From IMG/VR virus record IMGVR_UViG_2684622670_000011, positions 1-9,613 of that record: a stretch of DNA of 9,613 bases; one strand, written 5' to 3'. Source of the stretch: a virus (lineage: Duplodnaviria; Heunggongvirae; Uroviricota; Caudoviricetes). Each line of letters starts with the position of its first letter. Within the stretch, counting starts at the first letter, position 1. Of this stretch, positions 18 through 9,613 are shown piece by piece. A model generated the notes under the pieces. That model searched no databases, was not told where the DNA came from, and saw only the letters and a list, made by a program, of their open reading frames with translations. The position numbers were made by a program, and so were the translations under genes.

Positions 18-2000
18 TCACCCTGTGAATATGAAAATCAATGGAAAGAGGCTACACGGGTGTCCTGATTTTGTGATCCACAACAATCCATGCAGAATGA
101 CCAGAGCCTCGGCATACACCATCAGGTCAAAAGCTTCGTTGGCACCGCGACCCGGCTTACTCCATTTCCCGTCACTGCTCCGCTCTTCATACGTCAGTTC
201 GTCGTAAAACCAGCTCCCCAGCCAGTCAGGGAAATGCACATAGCCGGGACCTGGCGAGTCACGCCATAACGCGTTATTCACCCGGTCTTTCAGGGCATCC
301 GTCTGAAGAAGCCAGAGCGGCACATCACCTGCGGCCTGCGCCCGTCGGCCCGTTCGTCCGGTGTTATCAGGGAATGTACGGGTGATCAGTTTTGCGCGCC
401 GGATGCTGTCGCCCTTAAACAGGTAAATACGTTTACCAAGGCCATCACGACGGCAACGACGCCAGAATTTATAGGCATTATCAGTGACCCCGTCTTCACC
501 GCCGGAGTCCACCGCCATTGCCATCAGTCGCATTTGTTGAGAAGGATCGGAGGCCAGCGGCCAGCTTTTATGAAAAACATCCGTCAGCAGGACATCCCAG
601 TCTTCCGGATAGCTGGCCGGATCAATTCGCTGGCTCCCCCCGTCGCTGTCACCGCGCAATGACTGCGTGATGTTGTAACGATCAATAATCCAGCGTTCGC
701 CACGGCTGCCATAGCCCGTTACCTGAACCACAAAACGGCGATGACGTCCCGCCTGCACATCCACTGTCGCCACAAGGAAATTAACGCCATCCGGCACACT
801 GCGGGAAGGAACTGGCTCTGCCCGCTGCCCAAGCAGTTCACTTTTTCGTTGCTCCATGCTGGCGCGGGGAAGATAAGGTAATCCCCAGTCGGTATTGATA
901 ACCGTCTTGAGTGTTTCTTCACTTCCGGTTGTCTCGTATTCCTGTTCTGCAGTAAGCAGTTTGTAAACGAGTTGCGAGAGTGTCTGGTAAGCAGCTGCCG
1001 GACCCTCCATCCAGAATGACGCAATACGTGAGCGTCGGGGATCACCATAACGACTGCCATCCGCATTGATGGATTCACCATCCCGCAACCAGACCCCACG
1101 TCCGTTCAGCTCACGTTTTTGTTCAGGCATAATCCGTCCTGAACAGGAAGGACACTGAATATAAGCCGCCTCACTTGCCAGCACGGGATCGGCAATATCA
1201 CGGAAACCAGCAACCACATCGCCGCAGGGCTGAAAATACTCACCACAGTGTGGACAGGGCCAGTACCAGCGACGGCGATCGCCACGGTTATAGAGCGACA
1301 GTATCCCCGTGGTTGGTGGAGCCTCATGCGGTGAAGTCCGTCTCCATTTCACATCCTTCACATCCCTGCCGGGGGAACTCTCCACCAGCGTCATACCGCT
1401 GGACATAAATGTGGTGGTACGTTTTGAGGCAAGAGAGAAAGCATCCCCCTCGCCATCAATATCTTCCGGAAAACGGTCATAATCCGTCAGCGCCACGCAT
1501 TTATAATCTGATGAGGACATGATATTGACTGACGGCCAGCCGATTTTCAGGTAGTTGCCAGCAAGGAATGTTCTGTCATAAACGTTGTTGTCATTTTTGT
1601 TCGGACTCAGGCGACTGACCACTTCCGGGCTGACGCGAAACGTTCTGGCGAGTCGTTTTTTGGAGTGTTCGCGGGCTTTTTCCTCCGTCATCTGAATGAT
1701 CAGCATATCCGCAGGATCGCAAATCACGTTGTAAATCACCCAGCCGTCAATCAGGCCGATAGTCTTGCCGGTTCGTGCCGGGCCAACAAATATCACTGCG
1801 TCGTATTCACGCGAGGCCAGGCAGTTCATCGGCTCAATAACATACGGTGCCACCAGCGGATCCCACGGGACTGAGTTCCCTGCCCCCATGGGCACCCGCA
1901 TATACTGAGCAACGGCATCAGCAACCCGCATTCGTCTCGGTGCGCGAAGGATATAACCTGAATCGGTTCGTGCTGCCTTTGCGGTTTCCTGATTCAGCAT
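18..2000 (-). CDS. A: Phage terminase large subunit (lambda gpA family)
   Basis: 660-aa ORF. Walker-A-like GPARTGKT near the N-terminus; WPCPHCGEYF aligns with lambda gpA ACPHCGEEQY; VWLRDG and NEAFDLMVYAEAL segments match gpA. Start ATG overlaps the stop of the upstream small-subunit gene (TAATG), as in lambda Nu1/A. Confidence 0.9.
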   Translation of the reverse strand: MLNQETAKAARTDSGYILRAPRRMRVADAVAQYMRVPMGAGNSVPWDPLVAPYVIEPMNCLASREYDAVIFVGPARTGKTIGLIDGWVIYNVICDPADMLIIQMTEEKAREHSKKRLARTFRVSPEVVSRLSPNKNDNNVYDRTFLAGNYLKIGWPSVNIMSSSDYKCVALTDYDRFPEDIDGEGDAFSLASKRTTTFMSSGMTLVESSPGRDVKDVKWRRTSPHEAPPTTGILSLYNRGDRRRWYWPCPHCGEYFQPCGDVVAGFRDIADPVLASEAAYIQCPSCSGRIMPEQKRELNGRGVWLRDGESINADGSRYGDPRRSRIASFWMEGPAAAYQTLSQLVYKLLTAEQEYETTGSEETLKTVINTDWGLPYLPRASMEQRKSELLGQRAEPVPSRSVPDGVNFLVATVDVQAGRHRRFVVQVTGYGSRGERWIIDRYNITQSLRGDSDGGSQRIDPASYPEDWDVLLTDVFHKSWPLASDPSQQMRLMAMAVDSGGEDGVTDNAYKFWRRCRRDGLGKRIYLFKGDSIRRAKLITRTFPDNTGRTGRRAQAAGDVPLWLLQTDALKDRVNNALWRDSPGPGYVHFPDWLGSWFYDELTYEERSSDGKWSKPGRGANEAFDLMVYAEALVILHGLLWITKSGHPCSLFPLIFIFTG

Positions 2001-2494
2001 TACTCCTCCTGCTGTAGTTCCTCCTCATCATCCGCACCTGCTTCAGTCACCCGCAGGGCTATCTGATCGCGCAGATCATCAATAATGGACTGAACACGGC
2101 TCACAGCGGCAGGCTGCAGACCGCAGTCACGTTCCAGAATATCCGGTAATGTCTCCAGCACCTGCACGACCGCTTTTGCCCAGATGGCAAACTCCCGTCT
2201 GACATCACTGGCCGGAATGAGTTGTGCCGTTTCCTGTTCGAACTTAAGACGCTCACGTTCAGACTGATACCAGGCTTTGCGCTCATGCGCGTCCATTTCG
2301 CCTTCTGCAACAGGCGGTGGTAATGCCAGAAATGCCGACACAATATCAACCACCCGATAAAGCTTGAGGTTGCTTTCATGCCCCCCTGCAACGGGTAGAT
2401 TTTGCAGCCTTGCCGCAGCAGTCTGGCGATGTACACCTGACAGTGCCGCCAGTTGACTGATATTCAGCGTCAGATTTTTTAACTCTCGATCCAT
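2000..2494 (-). CDS. Terminase small subunit (Nu1-like DNA-packaging protein)
   Basis: 164 aa. N-terminal HTH-like segment (NISQLAALSGVHRQTAAARL) followed by a Gly-rich turn and LY motif, the same architecture as lambda Nu1; acidic C-terminal tail. Sits between cos and the large terminase gene. SD GGAG about 5 nt upstream of the ATG at 2492-2494. Confidence 0.7.
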   Translation of the reverse strand: MDRELKNLTLNISQLAALSGVHRQTAAARLQNLPVAGGHESNLKLYRVVDIVSAFLALPPPVAEGEMDAHERKAWYQSERERLKFEQETAQLIPASDVRREFAIWAKAVVQVLETLPDILERDCGLQPAAVSRVQSIIDDLRDQIALRVTEAGADDEEELQQEE

Positions 2495-3026: not shown

Positions 3027-3491
3027 TTATCTGAGGCATTGCTCACGAATGTATAGCTGTGCCCCTTCCAGTTGCTTCTGCATCGTCATCAATCGGTCTC
3101 TGAGAGTGAAATAATCCCGTTCAGCGGTGTCTGCCAGTCGGGGGCTGGTTGCATCATCCACGCCGGAGGAGGCGGTGGCTTCACGCACGGCTGGACAGAC
3201 TGCTCTGATGCGCAACCGACGACGACCAGCGGCAATATCATCACGCAGAGCATCATTTTCAGCTTTCGCATCAGCTAATTCCTTTGAATATTTTGCATCG
3301 AGTGCAGCAACGTCACGCTGGCGCACCTGCATATCAGTAATGATCGCCTCTGCCAGTTTCAGCTCTCTGGCATTGTCATCGCGTTGTGTTTTGTAGGTAA
3401 TGGCGTTATCGCGGTAATGATCTGTTGCCAGCCACAGAGCACTACAGACCATCAGCAGGACAATAATCACGCCATACAGAATCCGGTTCAT
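3027..3491 (-). CDS. Rz: Rz i-spanin (inner-membrane spanin subunit)
   Basis: From the ATG at 3489-3491 the translation [55 protein letters not shown]... is near-collinear with lambda Rz (…[32 protein letters not shown]…). N-terminal TM helix. The TTG at 3542 in the ORF track is an upstream alternative I do not favour. Confidence 0.9.
   Translation of the reverse strand: [154 protein letters not shown]
3089..3271 (-). CDS. Rz1: Rz1 o-spanin (outer-membrane lipoprotein), embedded in Rz in the +1 frame
   Basis: 60 aa, MRKLKMMLCVMILPLVVVGCAS...CVKPPPPPAWMMQPAPDWQTPLNGIIS, nearly identical to lambda Rz1 (MLKLKMMLCVMMLPLVVVGC…CVKPPPPPAWIMQPPPDWQTPLNGIIS). Lipobox VVGC, proline-rich stretch, fully nested inside Rz. 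Confidence 0.9.
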   Translation of the reverse strand: MRKLKMMLCVMILPLVVVGCASEQSVQPCVKPPPPPAWMMQPAPDWQTPLNGIISLSETD

Positions 3492-3492
3492 T

Positions 3493-3630
3493 TCACCACC
3501 AGCGTATCTGACCGATGAAATAACCGGAGCCCATAACCACAAACACCAGCCAGATAAGGATGAACTTCCAGGTGGATAATTTTTCAGCCATCACTCGAAT
3601 CTCCAGAATCAGTTTGCTAAAATCAAACAC
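3493..3630 (-). CDS. Small single-pass membrane peptide (45 aa from GTG; alternative 32-aa form from the ATG at 3589-3591), unknown function
   Basis: Minus strand AAAGGAGAAAAC-GTG gives a strong SD 6 nt before the GTG at 3628-3630. Product MFDFSKLILEIRVMAEKLSTWKFILIWLVFVVMGSGYFIGQIRWW has one hydrophobic helix. Stop TGA lies 1 nt before the Rz ATG. Not present at this position in lambda, where R and Rz abut. Confidence 0.4.
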   Translation of the reverse strand: MFDFSKLILEIRVMAEKLSTWKFILIWLVFVVMGSGYFIGQIRWW

Positions 3631-3786: not shown

Positions 3787-4320
3787 TTATCTGTCGATCC
3801 CCCAGCACACCAGCGCACTCTCCTGGTCACGACGAATAACCTGACCGTAACAGTTATTTGAACGAATGCGGCAATCACGGCCACCGTCCTTAATCCACCA
3901 GCGAATCGCCTCGCATGCGCCTTTACGATCACCGGCATTCAGCCGCTTATAAAACGTCGACGGGAAACACTTACCGGGGCCAATGTTATAGGGACAAAAT
4001 GACGCAATACCTGCTTTTTGTGGTTCGGTCAGTGGTACTTTTATATTGCGATCCACCCATGCCAGCGCCTTATCACGTTCAATAGCGTTAACCTGGTCGC
4101 ATTTTTCCTTCGACAGCTTCATTCCCGGTATGACGGGCTTACCATCCACCATTGTGGCACCACGACAGATGGTCCATATGCCAGAACCATCACGGTATGC
4201 CGTTGTGTGGTTACCTTCTTTTTCATCCAGAAACTGGTCAAGTATTTGAGGAGCAGACGCGCCTGCAGCAATCAGCGCCAGAACGGCAGCTGACAGGCCG
4301 TATTTGATTTTTACGTTCAT
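3787..4320 (-). CDS. R: Phage endolysin, GH24 (T4-type) lysozyme with N-terminal signal/SAR segment
   Basis: 177 aa. E-x8-D-x5-T catalytic pattern (EGNHTTAYRDGSGIWT) typical of T4-like lysozymes. N-terminal Ala/Gly-rich hydrophobic segment GLSAAVLALIAAGASA, either a SAR domain or a cleavable signal peptide. Downstream of the pinholin. No obvious SD upstream of the ATG (AU-rich leader ATAAATATCC). Confidence 0.85.
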   Translation of the reverse strand: MNVKIKYGLSAAVLALIAAGASAPQILDQFLDEKEGNHTTAYRDGSGIWTICRGATMVDGKPVIPGMKLSKEKCDQVNAIERDKALAWVDRNIKVPLTEPQKAGIASFCPYNIGPGKCFPSTFYKRLNAGDRKGACEAIRWWIKDGGRDCRIRSNNCYGQVIRRDQESALVCWGIDR

Positions 4321-4433: not shown

Positions 4434-4694
4434 ATGGATTACACAAATCTACCAAAACAAACTTTTGCTGATTTAATCGCACTCAGGCAAGCAGTCGTAG
4501 CTCTAATCAACTTGTTGCCGGAGAAGGAAAAGGAATTAGTTAAAGCGCTTCTTAACAGAACTGCCGCCGATTTTTCATCATATCCACTGACAGATGACCT
4601 TGCGGACCTTCCTGAATTAATTGCAGCGTCCGCCAATAAGCTTACTGAAGAGATTTACCCTCCTCAAAAATCTTCACAAAATTCCTGCGAGTAA
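4434..4694 (+). CDS. Hypothetical acidic 86-aa protein, antisense to the phage late operon, with its own SD and terminator
   Basis: ATG with SD AGAGG; protein-like helical composition (MDYTNLPKQTFADLIALRQAVVALINLLPEKEKELVKALL…). A textbook intrinsic terminator sits 22 nt downstream of the stop (4717-4748). The last 53 nt overlap the 3' end of the convergent 183-aa gene. Confidence 0.5.
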   Translation: MDYTNLPKQTFADLIALRQAVVALINLLPEKEKELVKALLNRTAADFSSYPLTDDLADLPELIAASANKLTEEIYPPQKSSQNSCE

Positions 4695-5193
4695 CTTCAA
4701 TGCAATAATCGTAAAACGCCGCAAACTGCTCATCGCGGCGTTTTTTTTCATCTTCAGAAGGAATCAGCACCGACAATTTTTTATTCAGATCAGCGACGCT
4801 GCCCTCCAGTTTTTCAATGGGCGATTCAATATCATCTTTTTCTGACCGCAATGCCGTCGGTGGCGTCTTCAGAGAACCAGTAATTCTTCCCGGTAGCTTT
4901 CCTTTGTAGGTTATCCACACATTCTGCGCCTCTAAAATTATGGGGCGCTTTTCCGGCGACTGCTCATCCCCTTCACATAACCCGGCAGCAACATCCAGGA
5001 AGTCCTGTCTGATGCTCCTTCTGGCTGCTGCCTCATAAAACTCCAGCGCGGCACCTTCAACACGGTCCAGCGAGATGTCCAGGTCAAAAATTTCACCGTC
5101 AAAGTGTTTTTTGTCCCGTAAGGCTACAGTTACCGCCACTTTATTCTCAAAATTGCGAACTCCTTTCACAACCAGTTCATAGTCTTGAGTCAT
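4642..5193 (-). CDS. Hypothetical 183-aa soluble acidic protein inserted between holin and endolysin; N-terminus possibly DUF1327/YdfR-like (unverified)
   Basis: ATG at 5191-5193 lies 4 nt after the holin stop, with a purine-rich GAGAAGAGAG SD inside the holin 3' end, suggesting translational coupling to S. The ORF-track start at 5214 is a TTG overlapping the holin and is not favoured. No TM segments; charged, coiled-coil-like C-terminal half. Confidence 0.6.
   Translation of the reverse strand: MTQDYELVVKGVRNFENKVAVTVALRDKKHFDGEIFDLDISLDRVEGAALEFYEAAARRSIRQDFLDVAAGLCEGDEQSPEKRPIILEAQNVWITYKGKLPGRITGSLKTPPTALRSEKDDIESPIEKLEGSVADLNKKLSVLIPSEDEKKRRDEQFAAFYDYCIEVTRRNFVKIFEEGKSLQ
4717..4748 (+). 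terminator. Rho-independent terminator of the 86-aa plus-strand gene, embedded inside the minus-strand 183-aa CDS
   Basis: CGCCGC (4717-4722), 11-nt loop, GCGGCG (4735-4740), then T8 (4741-4748). On the minus strand the same bases encode KKRRDEQFAAFY of the 183-aa protein. Confidence 0.65.
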
Positions 5194-5197
5194 TGGA

Positions 5198-5413
5198 TTA
5201 CTCTCTTCTCGCAACCTTACGCCTGTCTTCTTTAATCTTGAAATAAAGGTTTGTCAGATACGTCAGCATGCCAAATACCAGACTACCCAATACACCTATT
5301 GCCGCCCACTGTGAGGGCGTGACTTTATCGAGCAACTGTAAAAACCAGTAGCCAGCACTGCCTGCAGAGGTGCTGTAGGCGATGCCCGTTGTTAACTTAT
5401 CCATGGATTTCAT
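5198..5413 (-). CDS. S: Class II holin, phage 21 S21-type pinholin with dual-start (antiholin/holin) motif
   Basis: 71 aa, [71 protein letters not shown], matching my recollection of S21 almost residue for residue. MKSM dual start, two TMDs, strong SD GGAGGTGA upstream of the ATG at 5411-5413. Confidence 0.9.
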
Positions 5414-5502
5414 AGCCTCACCTCCGCAGATAACGGATGGTGTACACGGTTTGGTTCGAAGAAGGAAAGAAGTTACATTAGCGTAAGGCCCGAACATCTA
5501 TT

Positions 5503-5534
5503 CAAAAAGAAAAACGCCAGCAATTATTCTGGCG
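5503..5534 (-). terminator. Rho-independent terminator downstream of the AraC-family gene
   Basis: Minus strand: CGCCAG, loop AATAATTG, CTGGCG, then TTTTTCTTTTTG; about 70 nt after the regulator stop codon. Confidence 0.5.
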
Positions 5535-5603
5535 TAGCTAAAAATATCGTATAATCTTACACTTCAAAAAATAACTTTATAAAATGCCATCACATCATAT
5601 CTT

Positions 5604-6317
5604 CTAAGAAAATCTTGATAAATATTGGTGCGGAGGCACACCAAAATATCCTCTAAAAACACTTACAAAATATGATGCATTGTCATACCCGCATATTCCC
5701 GCCACCTTGCCGACAGTATGGTTACTGTAGATCAATAATCTTTGCGCCATCATCATTCGTTCTTCAAGAATTAATTTACTAAACGATAACCCTTCATCTT
5801 CTAATTTTCTTTTTAACAAACTCTCGCTCATATATAATCTTGAAGATATATCACAAAGTCTCCATGACGCTGAGATATCCGAGTGAATAATAGCCTTAAC
5901 TTTACAACCTAAGCTATTAAGACTTCCGAACAAAAAACTTTGCACTATTTTCTCTGAAGATAAGACAGCAAGACATGCAAGTGATATTTGATTTCTAACT
6001 ACATCCACGGTTTTGCTATCACAATTCAAGCATGCAACCAAGTTCTTTAACAATGAAAAATCTTCACATTCTACTATAAAGTATGACGGATAAAACCTTC
6101 TTACAGAAAAAGGTGAGAGTGTGTAGTTTTTAAAGAAATCATTAACTGTTTTCTCCTCAACATCTACGATCATTAGATGATCTGTATTTGACGAAAAAAG
6201 ATCTTTTAAATTGTATTCAATGAGAACAGCATTTCCTTTTTTAAACAAAATATCTTCTTTACCAATTCGGACACCAAACGAGTTCAACACCAAAATGATA
6301 GAACATATGTATGGCAT
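5604..6317 (-). CDS. AraC/XylS-family transcriptional regulator, AppY/EnvY-like
   Basis: 237 aa from the ATG at 6315-6317, with SD AGGTGG 5 nt upstream (the GTG at 6326 is less likely). C-terminal AraC HTH region WRLCDISSRLYMSESLLKRKLEDEGLSFSKLILEERMMMAQRLL...GICGYDNASYFVSVFRGYFGVPPHQY aligns closely with my recollection of E. coli AppY. N-terminus MPYICSIILVLNSF resembles AppY MDYVCSVVFICQSF. Gene and flanks are visibly AT-rich. Confidence 0.8.
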   Translation of the reverse strand: MPYICSIILVLNSFGVRIGKEDILFKKGNAVLIEYNLKDLFSSNTDHLMIVDVEEKTVNDFFKNYTLSPFSVRRFYPSYFIVECEDFSLLKNLVACLNCDSKTVDVVRNQISLACLAVLSSEKIVQSFLFGSLNSLGCKVKAIIHSDISASWRLCDISSRLYMSESLLKRKLEDEGLSFSKLILEERMMMAQRLLIYSNHTVGKVAGICGYDNASYFVSVFRGYFGVPPHQYLSRFS

Positions 6318-6723
6318 ATTATCCACCTGATATCATTGGGGTTACACCAGGTAAGTATAGGTGGAAAATCAATATTCGCCAGTTCAACAATAAGGAAAAT
6401 CTCATTGCATCACAACTATAAAACCATGTGTTTAACTCACAAAAAACAAATCATTAAACTAATCTGTTATATTATAATAGCTGCGTGCAATAATAATATT
6501 ATATGCTCTTAATATTCACTTGAAATATCTTCATATAAAAACAGATTGAATAAAATCTTTTGGGGCTGGTATGTTTACCAACATTAAATTGCATCTCAAT
6601 GTTTTCTTTAGCGTGAACAGGATTTTTATAAAAACTGACACTATGAGCATCATAGCGTAGTTTTTACGATTGTAAATATCCTGCATACAGGAACTCATCA
6701 CTTTCAGATGATATCGCATACAG
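6318..6723 (-). promoter_or_regulatory. AT-rich ~400 bp intergenic region upstream of the AppY-like gene (probable promoter and silencing region)
   Basis: Very AT-rich with many TATAAT-like hexamers on both strands and no convincing ORF. Typical of upstream regions of horizontally acquired AraC-family genes. No specific promoter assigned. Confidence 0.3.
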
Positions 6724-7683
6724 TTAATTCACCATCAGTCTTAGAGCCAGTTCTTCCGGATAGGGATCGAAGTAATTCTGTGTAAGCAAGTAATCATTAG
6801 GATACTCACCCAGATAATGCTTCAGCAGAGTCAACGGCGCAAGAAGAGGCAATGTGCCAAAGCGATAGTTAAGTATAACCTCGCTCAACTCTTTACGCTG
6901 GCGTGTACTTAAGTAATTACTAAAATACCCCTGTATATGCATCAGCACATTCGTGTGATTTTTACGTGATGCTGGTTTTCTGAGAATCGCCATCAGATTA
7001 TCACGATACACCTCAAAGTATGATTCAAGGTCCGCCCACTCGTGTATTGCAGCCACAAATGGTCCCATATCTTTATAGCCTGCCTGGCTATGCGCCAACA
7101 ACTGAAGCTTATAACGACTATGAAAAGCTAATAACTCTCTTCTTGATAATTTCTCCTTGTAAAGGTGATTGAGCTCATGCAAAGCAAAAACTCTTTCAAT
7201 AAAATTCTCACGAAGCACTGGATCATGTAATCGCCCATCCTCTTCAACCGGTAGCCAGGAAAACTTTTCCATCAAAGTGCTCGTAAATAGTCCCACTCCA
7301 TCTTTACGACCTCGATTACCATTTTCATCATAGACACGCACGCGCTCCATGCCACAGCTGGGAGATTTAGCACAAACCACAAACCCCGATACATCCTTTA
7401 ATTTGTCCATATAAGAACGACTAAACTCTGTCATTCTCTCTGTCACATCCTCATTCTGGTCGTGGCTGAAACACATCTGTATATTTCCTTGCTTCGAGCG
7501 CACAAGTCGTAGAGCAGGACGCGGAACTGGCAGCCCTATAGCCATTTCCGGACATACTGGTCTGAATGTTACCCATTCCACTAATTTGTCCATTAAAAAG
7601 TCATCTCTTTTGTGACCACCATCAAAACGAACAGCAGAACCGCCCAAACAACCGCTGATCCCAATCACAGGTTTTTTTATCAT
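6724..7683 (-). CDS. Fused DUF523 (TudS-like [4Fe-4S] thio-nucleobase desulfurase) / DUF1722 (YbgA-like) protein
   Basis: 319 aa. N-terminal half has conserved cysteines in DUF523-like spacing (GISGCLGG, RPVCPEM, CAKSPSCG); C-terminal half is helical and YbgA-like. SD GGGGGAGG immediately upstream of the ATG at 7681-7683. Confidence 0.75.
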   Translation of the reverse strand: MIKKPVIGISGCLGGSAVRFDGGHKRDDFLMDKLVEWVTFRPVCPEMAIGLPVPRPALRLVRSKQGNIQMCFSHDQNEDVTERMTEFSRSYMDKLKDVSGFVVCAKSPSCGMERVRVYDENGNRGRKDGVGLFTSTLMEKFSWLPVEEDGRLHDPVLRENFIERVFALHELNHLYKEKLSRRELLAFHSRYKLQLLAHSQAGYKDMGPFVAAIHEWADLESYFEVYRDNLMAILRKPASRKNHTNVLMHIQGYFSNYLSTRQRKELSEVILNYRFGTLPLLAPLTLLKHYLGEYPNDYLLTQNYFDPYPEELALRLMVN

Positions 7684-7875
7684 TTCCTCCCCCTTGACTA
7701 ATTCATTAACACATAAACTTTGTAGTGCACGGACTAAATTGCCTTTCTGGCTTCATCACTGACAATTTTTCTGTTATTGACTATTCCTAATATAGTAGGA
7801 AAGTTCTTTAAGTGATCGGTCGTACTCATCTATCTTTCATACTTACTCTCAACTATCAAAAGTACAGGATTTATT
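7684..7875. promoter_or_regulatory. Divergent intergenic region between the DUF523/DUF1722 gene and the lipocalin gene
   Basis: 192 bp AT-rich spacer between divergently oriented starts; contains TTGACT hexamers (e.g. near 7693 and 7779) but no confidently paired -10 element. Confidence 0.3.
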
Positions 7876-8400
7876 ATGAAGTTATGGCCTGTGTTGACTG
7901 GCATTGCACTCTCTTTCACTCTTATAGCATGTAAGGCCCCGACACCACCTAAAGGTGTGCAGCCGATTACAAATTTTGACGCCAACCGCTACCTCGGAAA
8001 ATGGTATGAAATAGCTCGCCTCGAGAACTGGTTCGAACGTGGTCTGGAACAGGTCAGCGCTACTTATGAAAAACGGAACGACGGAGGGATTCGCGTACTT
8101 AACCGTGGATACGATCCAACGAAAAACAAATGGAGCGAGAGCGAAGGTAAAGCATACTTTACTGGAGATACTAAAACTGCAGCGTTGAAAGTTTCGTTTT
8201 TTGGCCCCTTCTATGGTGGCTATAATGTAATCAAACTGGATGATGAGTATAAGTATGCTCTTGTCAGTGGTCCGAACAGAGAATACCTATGGATTCTGGC
8301 AAGGACCCAAACTATTCCAGATAATGTAAAAGCAGACTATGTGCGTACCGCTCAAAAGTTGGGATTCAATGTCAATGAACTATTATGGGTTAATCAATAA
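7876..8400 (+). CDS. blc: Bacterial lipocalin Blc-like outer-membrane lipoprotein
   Basis: 174 aa. Signal peptide with lipobox LIAC then CKAPTPPKG. NFDANRYLGKWYEIARLENWFERGLEQV, SEGKAYFTGD, ALKVSFFGPFYGGYNVI and YLWILART blocks match E. coli Blc motifs (roughly half or more of residues identical by eye). SD AGGA 6 nt upstream of the ATG. Confidence 0.85.
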   Translation: MKLWPVLTGIALSFTLIACKAPTPPKGVQPITNFDANRYLGKWYEIARLENWFERGLEQVSATYEKRNDGGIRVLNRGYDPTKNKWSESEGKAYFTGDTKTAALKVSFFGPFYGGYNVIKLDDEYKYALVSGPNREYLWILARTQTIPDNVKADYVRTAQKLGFNVNELLWVNQ

Positions 8401-8428
8401 AATCCCCACCCGAAATGATACTTATTAG

Positions 8429-8455
8429 AAAAAAACCAGCCTTTGGGGAGGCTGG
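8429..8455 (-). terminator. Rho-independent terminator downstream of Q (tR'-like)
   Basis: Minus strand: CCAGCCT, loop CCCCAA, AGGCTGG, then T7; about 100 bp downstream of the Q stop. On the plus strand the hairpin is not followed by a T-run, so it is oriented for minus-strand transcripts. Confidence 0.55.
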
Positions 8456-8555
8456 CTAAATCAGGAAACAAGCTGTTATATGATAATAACTACGTTGCGA
8501 TTCCAACATTTAAAATGTTAGACTAATGAAAATCAGACAGCAACTTTTCCTTTAA
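8456..8555 (-). promoter_or_regulatory. Putative late promoter pR' and qut region
   Basis: Position immediately downstream of Q and upstream of the tR'-like terminator matches lambdoid late-control architecture. Candidate hexamers TTGGAA...TATCAT and a near-palindrome AACATTTTAAATGTT (plus-strand coordinates about 8501-8520); exact promoter not resolved. Confidence 0.35.
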
Positions 8556-8933
8556 TTATTTCGAACAATCAGCATCCATCTCCAATCGGAGATCCAACAC
8601 CATCAGCATGCCCTCCACTACGCCCTCAGCTTTCTGGAGCATCCTGCCAACCCAACAATCAGATCGCCCATGCTTACGTGCAAGCGCCATAAAAGTCATG
8701 CCGCCGACATAATAGTCCACCAATAAATCATGTAAATCGCTGTTGTTTTTTTTCAGGCGAGCCATACATTCACAAATGATCATCGCGTCATCGTCACAGC
8801 ATTGCGGACGAGATCTTACTTTTGAAGGAATTAATCCCTTAAAACCGGCGGCAATGGACGACCAGGTCACATCTTCATGATTATTAGCCGCCCATGCCCC
8901 CCAACGCTCAAGAACCATCTGAATATCACGCAT
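8556..8933 (-). CDS. Q: Late-gene antiterminator Q (phage 82 / DLP12 QuuD type)
   Basis: 125 aa from the ATG at 8931-8933 (SD GGAG upstream; the ORF-track start at 8948 is a TTG). [35 protein letters not shown]...[32 protein letters not shown] matches my recollection of E. coli QuuD closely. Confidence 0.85.
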
Positions 8934-8950
8934 CAACTTACTCCACAAAA

Positions 8951-9613
8951 TTAGGCCAGCACACCAATTGCCAGCGCGCGATCGATAAATCGAAAAATCA
9001 GCTCCAGTTGGGAGCCATACTTCTCTTCAAATGCCACGGTATCCGTATGCAACTCGTCGTGATGCTTTCTGCACAAAGGCAACACAAAGAGATCATGTGC
9101 TTTGGTTCCCATTCCGCCCTGCCCGTGACCAATCAGATGATGCGGATCGTCGGCTGGCATACCGCAGCAAGCACACGGCTGTGTCTTAACCCAGCGTGTG
9201 TATTTCTCCTTAACCCAACGGTGACGTTTAGGCAGCTTCATGAAAGATTCCGGAGACTCTGGATCAACGGTGATGCTTACCACCGTCTTTTCCTGTGATG
9301 GGTTTTGTTGCTGGTGGGCGTGAGGCAACGGTGCAAGATTTTTTGTGCGCTGTTTCAATATGCTGGTGGCGGTCTGCTCTCCCGGTACGATGTCGCTTTC
9401 GCGGTACACCGAGCAGTTTTTTTCCGCTGGTAATCCCAGCGAGCGACGTAATACCGCTTCCGGTAACGCGTCCGCCACCTGATTGCGGACCGCCCACCAG
9501 GATAATTCAGCCAGAGATAATTCACGCTCCTGCGTACCGCTTATTGCGTGACCGATGACGTCAATCATCCATGCTGACAGGTTTTGATGAGCAAGTTGCT
9601 CGAGTGATTCGGA
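8951..9613 (-). CDS. nin-region protein with C-terminal Cys/His-rich HNH-like zinc-binding domain; 5' end probably outside the window
   Basis: Reading frame is open from the window edge (no in-frame stop between 9569 and 9613). C-terminal region has CACCG...DDPHHL...CRKHHDELH, a CxxC...HH...CxxH pattern. Sits immediately upstream of Q, where lambdoid phages carry NinG / YbcO / YdfU-type genes. An internal ATG at 9239-9241 would give a 96-aa domain-only product. Confidence 0.5.

Follow-up and report, generated by a model that had tools for sequence, protein, structure and literature searches.

In the DNA studied here, the 9,613-nt stretch of IMG/VR record IMGVR_UViG_2684622670_000011 that we call the window, the interval between the antiterminator gene Q and the holin gene S is occupied by three cargo genes. 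These are blc, which encodes a lipocalin lipoprotein, rudS, which encodes a fusion of DUF523 and DUF1722 domains, and a gene for an AraC-family regulator, referred to here as araC. The window covers the late-regulatory, lysis and packaging part of an Escherichia coli lambdoid prophage, with late transcription on the minus strand. We consider it likely, with a probability of roughly 0.75, that the three genes are a composite moron cassette of two modules, fixed in the Q–S slot of lambdoid phages that have a QuuD-type Q. One module would be the divergent blc/rudS pair, whose phage copy lacks the MerR/MlrA-like regulator usual in the chromosomal pair; the other would be a PatE-like araC gene together with its own terminator.

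Three cargo genes fill the Q–S interval

Gene calls in the window were screened against Pfam, NCBIfam and PHROGs. Positions 5414–8555 are the exact span from the stop of Q to the start of S, bordered upstream by a QuuD-type Q and downstream by a P21-type holin gene. Inside, blc lies on the plus strand, and rudS and araC on the strand of late transcription. A preliminary description of this DNA had proposed a cargo island at this junction, with two genes co-oriented with late transcription and the lipocalin gene antisense; its limits prove exact, and gene calls and domain searches confirm both the order Q–blc–rudS–araC–holin and the strands. It had also taken the cargo to be non-phage, which base composition bears out. 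The GC (guanine plus cytosine) fraction is 0.44 in blc, 0.43 in rudS, 0.33 in araC and about 0.30 in the rudS–araC spacer, compared with 0.47 in Q and 0.47–0.56 in the flanks; the base composition of the cassette is foreign. Q itself is 86% identical in amino acid sequence to QuuD of DLP12, and 95–100% identical across all cassette-bearing loci.

A further open reading frame of 62 residues, orf62 (6531..6719), was rejected as a fourth gene: it has no match in Pfam, NCBIfam or PHROGs and is not conserved between alleles. A tRNA scan of the cassette found no tRNA genes, and Rfam gave only two matches, both below threshold; one falls on the tR' hairpin described below.

The cassette is common in E. 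coli and is carried by plaque-forming phages

The interval was matched in 1154 of 5426 complete E. coli genomes, with at least 80% coverage in 883, and rudS was present at 80% coverage or more in 1111 of the same 5426 (20%). Twelve deposited phage genomes contain the cassette (IdasGreatGrand, 1H12 and the Lambda_ev/Lambda_2E9 group); 1H12 and the Lambda_ev phages stem from work in which coliphages were obtained as plaques on indicator strains (PMC6969025). In 13P484A and PSJ-07 the cassette lies inside full-length prophages that extend from integrase to tail genes and adjoin rspB, in the ydfJ/rspB region where K-12 carries Qin. Gene order and orientation are the same in every locus that spans the slot, namely 13P484A, PSJ-07, IdasGreatGrand, Lambda_2E9 and loci L008–L011, and three partial contigs (L012, L073 and L078) match this order as far as they extend. 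L073 and L078 are short contigs of a metagenome-assembled genome labelled Candidatus Nanosynbacter (Saccharibacteria), with cassette pieces 92–98% identical to ours; their presence there is almost certainly binning contamination.

Could the interval be chromosomal DNA misassembled onto phage DNA, or the inert debris of a dead prophage? Its foreign base composition would fit, as would the insertion sequences (IS) found in some copies. This reading is already refuted, and we give it practically no weight. These junctions recur in hundreds of closed genomes and in the 12 deposited phage genomes, most of which stem from the plaque-isolating study; the flanking prophages run from integrase to tail genes; and the three genes are intact and under purifying selection. 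The preliminary description had itself pointed to chromosomal sequence at an assembly join as the outcome that would undo it. Because plaque-forming phages carry the cassette, it is not an assembly artefact.

The same description called the cargo an unusual combination. This was mistaken, because the cassette is common, as the count for rudS shows, and partly characterised: RudS_vir, encoded in the same cassette, has been studied, and blc is a known lambda moron, listed as such in more than 50% of gut lambda phages (Mathieu et al., PMC6969025). Prophage AraC-like regulators of acid resistance (PatE, PsrB, AppY) are known as well. A literature search of an incomplete searchable corpus turned up no account that treats the three genes as one Q–S cassette, that describes blc and rudS as chromosomal neighbours, or that gives the prevalence of about 20%.

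rudS encodes a predicted tRNA 4-thiouridine desulfidase

What was earlier described as an Fe–S enzyme is, judged by its sequence, RudS, a predicted [4Fe-4S] tRNA 4-thiouridine (s4U) desulfidase. PF04463 covers residues 7–149 and PF08349 residues 192–309. The protein is 92% identical over all 319 residues to RudS_vir of phage 1H12/Lambda_2E9 and has Cys12, Cys44 and Cys110, the residues listed as [4Fe-4S] ligands of RudS_vir. Glu46, Ser107, Ser109 and Arg55 stand at the offsets of Glu51, Ser111, Ser113 and Arg60 of RudS_KT, in which mutating Cys17/49/114, Glu51, Ser111/113 or Arg60 abolished activity (PMC11417400). All RudS proteins tested, RudS_vir included, lowered tRNA s4U on over-expression in E. 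coli, and over-expressed RudS_KT diminished the growth delay induced by ultraviolet A (UVA) (Jamontas et al., PMC11417400). In place of the anaerobic traits suggested earlier for an Fe–S enzyme, the identity of the protein points to removal of s4U from tRNA.

RudS_vir (gp66 of Escherichia phage 1H12, NC_049947) is encoded by the same gene in the same cassette, with the same three cysteines and the same Q–blc–rudS neighbours, but it represents a different allele, with a synonymous divergence (dS) of about 0.29 from the window gene. The paper that characterised it treats the gene alone, and its Q–S position, its linkage to blc and its AraC neighbour are not discussed; ten viral RudS genes are noted, and E. 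coli is said to lack TudS/RudS homologues (PMC11417400). A distinct rudS homologue, with 65–67% nucleotide identity, occurs at about 60 places on E. coli plasmids (e.g. NZ_CP187565.1, 58279–59219).

The lipocalin is a paralogue of chromosomal Blc

The window lipocalin scores 312.4 bits against the NCBIfam Blc model NF007786, above the cut-off of 267. Its translation shows the lipobox LIAC with Cys19 and reads MKLWPVLTGIALSFTLIAC(19)K, with no Asp at position +2, and on these features we predict that the protein is sorted to the outer membrane. Chromosomal Blc of E. coli K-12 (b4149) is of the same family and has the lipobox, but is only 59% identical to the phage protein; the Blc paralogue that lies beside rudS in Enterobacterales chromosomes is 68–80% identical. 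A terminator scan found none after blc. The gene resembles bor of lambda, an outer-membrane lipoprotein moron that likewise lies antisense in the late region, and bor-like genes are found antisense beside Rz in the related phages examined.

The AraC-family regulator is closest to PatE

Among characterised regulators, the best match to the window AraC is Sakai ECs_0287, the presumptive PatE, with 47% identity over 237 residues and no gaps. GadW follows with 33% (233 residues), AppY with 30% (238) and YdeO with 29% (230). Homology to PatE, GadW, AppY and YdeO is full-length and includes the N-terminal domain, and the C-terminal double helix-turn-helix is recognised at residues 161–237 by PF12833 and also by PF00165; the protein matches phrog_1450 (1e-95). 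It falls well below the equivalog cut-offs of the YdeO model (110 bits against 348) and the GadX model (88 against 500); it is related to these proteins but is not itself YdeO, GadX or AppY. The earlier label, AppY-like, is loose. The protein is homologous to AppY over its full length, but its identity to AppY (30%) is well below that to the presumptive PatE (47%), and PatE-like is the better term.

GadW, GadX and YdeO are regulators of acid resistance system 2 (AR2) of E. coli. PatE and PsrB activate gadE/hdeAB and raise acid survival (review PMC10877973), and AppY, a prophage regulator of the AraC/XylS family, also affects acid resistance (PMC10057817). By analogy, the window AraC may regulate acid resistance as well. 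ECs_0287 was taken as PatE (z0321, O-island 8, OI-8) because it is the only AraC-type gene in prophage Sp1/CP-933H. PatE of enterohaemorrhagic E. coli O157:H7 (OI-8/CP-933H) is, like the window protein, prophage-borne, and is an activator of acid resistance. It is also of similar size, with 247 residues to the 237 of the window protein. Its gene, unlike araC, is outside the Q–S slot, past the tail-fibre genes at one extremity of a defective prophage, and an identity of 47% does not ensure that the two regulators have the same targets. AppY of DLP12 in K-12 is also prophage-encoded, but its gene is at the prophage end next to ompT.

Two other reported regulators were considered. Reviews place the AraC-like PsrA (z1789) in OI-50/CP-933N; in EDL933 CP-933N (NZ_CP008957.1, 1618000–1689000; L019/L020), neither the RefSeq annotation nor a tblastn search with the window AraC gave an AraC homologue. 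A 'PatE' of E. coli Nissle (EcN), named CIW80_12240 in a preprint, could not be matched to the cassette gene: the RefSeq locus numbers do not correspond, and RS12240 is bcsZ.

The two modules probably have separate histories

Cassette alleles fall into three groups, whose amino acid identities to the window are 99, 97 and 95% for Blc, 99.7, 97 and 91.5% for RudS, and 99, 84–85 and 75% for AraC. The ratio of nonsynonymous to synonymous divergence (dN/dS) is 0.12–0.28 for blc, 0.14–0.27 for rudS and about 0.22 for araC, values that indicate purifying selection on each gene. Within the same phage pairs, dS is 0.33–0.59 for araC, 0.04–0.29 for rudS and 0.05–0.17 for blc. The synonymous divergence of araC is far above that of the other two genes, which suggests a separate history. 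Distant araC alleles also occur alone after Q genes of other families, in L089 (6001–6735, 59% amino acid identity) behind a lambda-type (PF03589) Q and in L090 (6001–6735, 50%) behind a PF06323 Q. The L090 sequence continues past araC with the same terminator hairpin and then a P21-type holin gene; the L089 sequence ends at araC.

The hairpin in question (5535–5504 in the window) has a fold of −11.3 kcal/mol (z = −2.9). Since it also follows the 50%-identical araC behind the PF06323 Q, it belongs to araC and is not specific to one Q. A late promoter between araC and S was considered and rejected, as spacer and hairpin accompany araC when the preceding Q is of an unrelated family. Gene and terminator together form a module of their own, which is found alone in the Q–S slot of other lambdoid phages.

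The preliminary description regarded the slot as a moron hotspot, and comparison of the Q–S interval in related phages agrees. DLP12, 434, mEp332 and Turner, which have a Q of the same family, carry a single antisense porin gene, nmpC, at this place. Slot and Q family (86% amino acid identity) are shared with the window, and in both cases the first cargo gene is an antisense gene for an outer-membrane protein preceded by a terminator; the nmpC cassette differs in having one porin gene instead of three genes, and the sequence from Q to the cargo is unrelated. In Stx phages, the stx operon sits after Q, pR' and tR' and before S, in the direction of late transcription. Its geometry is that of rudS and araC here, but the window cassette contains no toxin or tRNA genes and follows a Q of a different family.

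The blc/rudS pair was probably captured from a chromosome

When species-representative genomes were scanned, the one for E. coli gave no rudS, and 62 chromosomal rudS loci with 66–75% identity came up in Citrobacter, Enterobacter, Leclercia, Kluyvera, Klebsiella, Pectobacterium and others. In 41 of the 62 Enterobacterales loci, the Blc paralogue is encoded divergently upstream of rudS. The gap between the two genes usually holds MerR/MlrA-like and transthyretin-like genes. In three loci the separation is no more than about 200 bp, as in the phage; one of these is Citrobacter sedlakii, where blc and rudS are adjacent with a spacer of 187 bp compared with 192 bp in the phage. No AraC homologue lies beside the chromosomal blc/rudS loci.

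Because the divergent pair occurs in many Enterobacter, Leclercia and Citrobacter chromosomes, the phage probably captured it, and the source was probably an Enterobacter- or Citrobacter-like chromosome, with the regulator left behind. The simplest reading of the sequences is that the captured pair joined a resident araC–terminator–holin arrangement. A fuller chromosomal neighbourhood is seen in Enterobacter cloacae (L039, 3021–5960), with a divergent blc paralogue, a MerR/MlrA-like regulator, a gene similar to transthyretin/5-hydroxyisourate hydrolase (HIUase), and rudS. The lipocalin–tRNA desulfidase neighbourhood is conserved in 41 Enterobacterales loci.

Late transcription is predicted to cross the cassette

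About 100 nt below the Q stop, and directly before the convergent end of blc, lies a tR'-like terminator (8457–8427) with a 9-bp stem, a run of seven U and a fold of −14.9 kcal/mol (z = −4.7). It is conserved in all cassette alleles and stands at the position expected for tR'. A candidate pR' (8543–8515) was read from the sequence; the consensus promoter scan missed it. Its −35 element is conserved, and its −10 element TAACAT becomes TAATGT in the Lambda_2E9 allele, with T1, A2 and T6 kept. An attempt to place pR' and the Q-binding element (QBE) by aligning the post-Q sequence with DLP12 and 434 failed, giving short words only, in a different order. When 8401–8560 is set against the nmpC-type loci L017 (1335–1530) and L015 (3288–3500), the shared words are limited to ATATAACAG and TTAnATGTTGG..GCAACG.

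S, R, Rz and the structural genes all come after the cassette, and to reach them Q-modified polymerase would have to traverse its full length. It would read antisense through blc and in sense through rudS and araC, so that rudS and araC would be co-expressed with the late genes and blc opposed. The induction-dependent expression of the cargo and the lysogen-only expression of blc put forward in the preliminary description are likewise predictions from structure. Between blc and rudS, the intergenic sequence is conserved among phage alleles; comparison of this region between phages and Citrobacter chromosomes shows no promoter conservation.

Insertion sequences of the IS3 family and IS1 recur inside the cassette: in the rudS–araC spacer, between Q and blc, or within rudS. 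Such insertions sever the cassette from late transcription, and the other genes remain intact. Strain MB20 (L086) has an IS3-family insertion in the rudS–araC spacer. BL21(DE3) (NZ_CP053602.1, 1589487–1590883; L085) retains Q, an intact phage lipocalin gene and a 147-bp 5' stub of rudS cut by IS3; its phage lipocalin shares its protein accession with that of wild strains. Prophages in which IS elements detach the cassette from Q or truncate it have kept all or some of it. Such retention and the purifying selection on the three genes are indirect support for a cargo that is expressed in the lysogen and benefits the host.

A model for the cassette and its alternatives

We suggest the following model, whose promoters, expression pattern and physiological effects are inferred from the anatomy of the cassette and from relatives of its genes. 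In the lysogen, each cargo gene would have a promoter to itself, either weak or responsive to stress. Blc would go to the outer membrane; RudS would strip the photosensitive s4U at position 8 (s4U8) from host tRNA and so lessen the near-UV growth delay; and AraC would feed into the acid-resistance circuit of the host (glutamate decarboxylase (GAD) and hdeAB), as do PatE, GadW/X, YdeO and AppY. Upon induction, Q-modified RNA polymerase would start just below Q, pass tR', blc (antisense), rudS and araC (sense) and the araC terminator, and reach S.

Several observations weigh against this model. The position of pR' has not been fixed exactly, and despite 86% identity between the Q proteins, the post-Q sequence cannot be aligned with that of DLP12 or 434. 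The number of promoter-like sites in the region is at chance level (13 found, 10.7 expected in shuffled sequence), and the consensus scan found no site in the blc/rudS intergenic region (7684–7875). Identity to PatE is only 47%, and ECs_0287 was equated with PatE (z0321) by position, not from a published sequence. Compared with the other RudS enzymes, RudS_vir had lower activity on tRNA, although its protein levels were good (PMC11417400).

The cassette might instead serve mainly the lytic cycle, with rudS, and perhaps araC, as auxiliary late genes and lysogenic conversion secondary. When UV induces the phage, tRNA with s4U8 suffers near-UV damage at the same time, and RudS made late would erase s4U and sustain translation for virions. 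Such a role would suit the position of rudS and araC, which have the orientation of late transcription and lie by necessity on the path from tR' to S, the absence from our scan of a convincing promoter belonging to rudS, the loss of the chromosomal MerR-type regulator on capture, and the relief of the UVA growth delay by over-expressed RudS_KT. We nevertheless find it rather unlikely: blc is antisense and cannot profit from late transcription, MB20 and BL21(DE3) have kept the cassette, in whole or in part, although IS elements have severed or truncated it, araC has its own terminator, as is typical of morons, and PatE-type regulators act in uninduced cells. More speculative, and somewhat less likely, is the proposal that late Q-driven RudS strips s4U8 after UV induction and thereby disables the near-UV/stringent growth-delay checkpoint, and that blc/rudS is an unrecognised light or envelope stress module, hijacked by the phage and paired with an acid-resistance regulator. 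If it were true, virions would be made in sunlight-stressed cells thanks to RudS as a tRNA 'eraser'.

Less probable again is the idea that AraC acts locally on blc and rudS, in place of the chromosomal MerR/MlrA-like regulator, and not on acid resistance in the host. A dedicated regulator is usual in the chromosomal blc/rudS module, and in the phage, where it is missing, araC adjoins rudS. Related AraC alleles nevertheless occupy Q–S slots without blc or rudS (L089, L090), and the presumptive PatE gene is at a prophage end with neither gene nearby. The nearest characterised relatives, PatE, GadW, AppY and YdeO, all act on host loci, and the divergence history of araC differs from that of blc and rudS.

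Other features of the window

The features of the window are collected in the table. Between the lysozyme and DUF1327 genes, an 86-residue open reading frame (4434–4694, plus strand) runs antisense; it matches phrog_2572 (4e-53) and has no Pfam family, and its counterpart in PSJ-07 is annotated as hypothetical. It may be another small moron.

Table. Coordinates of genes and regulatory features in the 9,613-nt window
Feature	Position	Strand	Evidence or remark
DUF968 (YdfU-like) gene	9568..8951	-	
Q antiterminator, QuuD type, 125 aa from ATG	8933..8556	-	PF06530 8e-51; mechanical open reading frame start is TTG at 8948
Candidate pR'	8515..8543	-	TTGCTG, 17 nt, TAACAT; low confidence
tR'-like intrinsic terminator	8427..8457	-	terminator scan and RNA fold
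blc paralogue, lipocalin lipoprotein	7876..8400	+	PF08212 9e-43; NCBIfam Blc
Divergent blc/rudS intergenic region, 192 bp	7684..7875	.	promoters presumed
rudS, TudS(DUF523)-DUF1722 fusion, 319 aa	7683..6724	-	PF04463 7e-40 and PF08349 9e-40
AT-rich rudS–araC spacer, GC about 0.30	6318..6723	.	presumed araC promoter region; IS landing site
AraC-family regulator, PatE-like, 237 aa	6317..5604	-	PF12833 9e-16, PF00165 5e-10
Intrinsic terminator of araC module, just upstream of holin gene	5504..5535	-	terminator scan and RNA fold
Class II (P21/S21-type) holin, dual start MKSMDK; downstream cassette edge	5413..5198	-	PF04971 9e-34; phrog_9876, phrog_20 (holin)
DUF1327/YdfR-like gene	5214..4642	-	
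Lysozyme	4320..3787	-	
Rz / Rz1	3542..3027 / 3271..3089	-	
Small terminase	2494..2000	-	
Large terminase	2000..18	-	

Implications for lambdoid phages and their hosts

Current views of lambdoid morons are not overturned by these results. They show how a Q–S cassette is put together, from a gene pair probably captured from a chromosome and a roaming regulator module. They also correct the RudS literature on one point: K-12 is without RudS, yet about one in five complete E. coli genomes has it on a lambdoid prophage. On account of a prophage, tRNA s4U levels and near-UV responses may therefore vary by strain. Of most interest is whether a late Q-driven eraser of tRNA s4U matters to the phage under UV-linked induction. 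Plaque-forming phages of one Q family carry either blc–rudS–araC or nmpC in the same slot, and so offer a natural experiment on whether Q-driven transcription ties the expression of a tRNA-editing enzyme and of a regulator of the acid-resistance type to induction.

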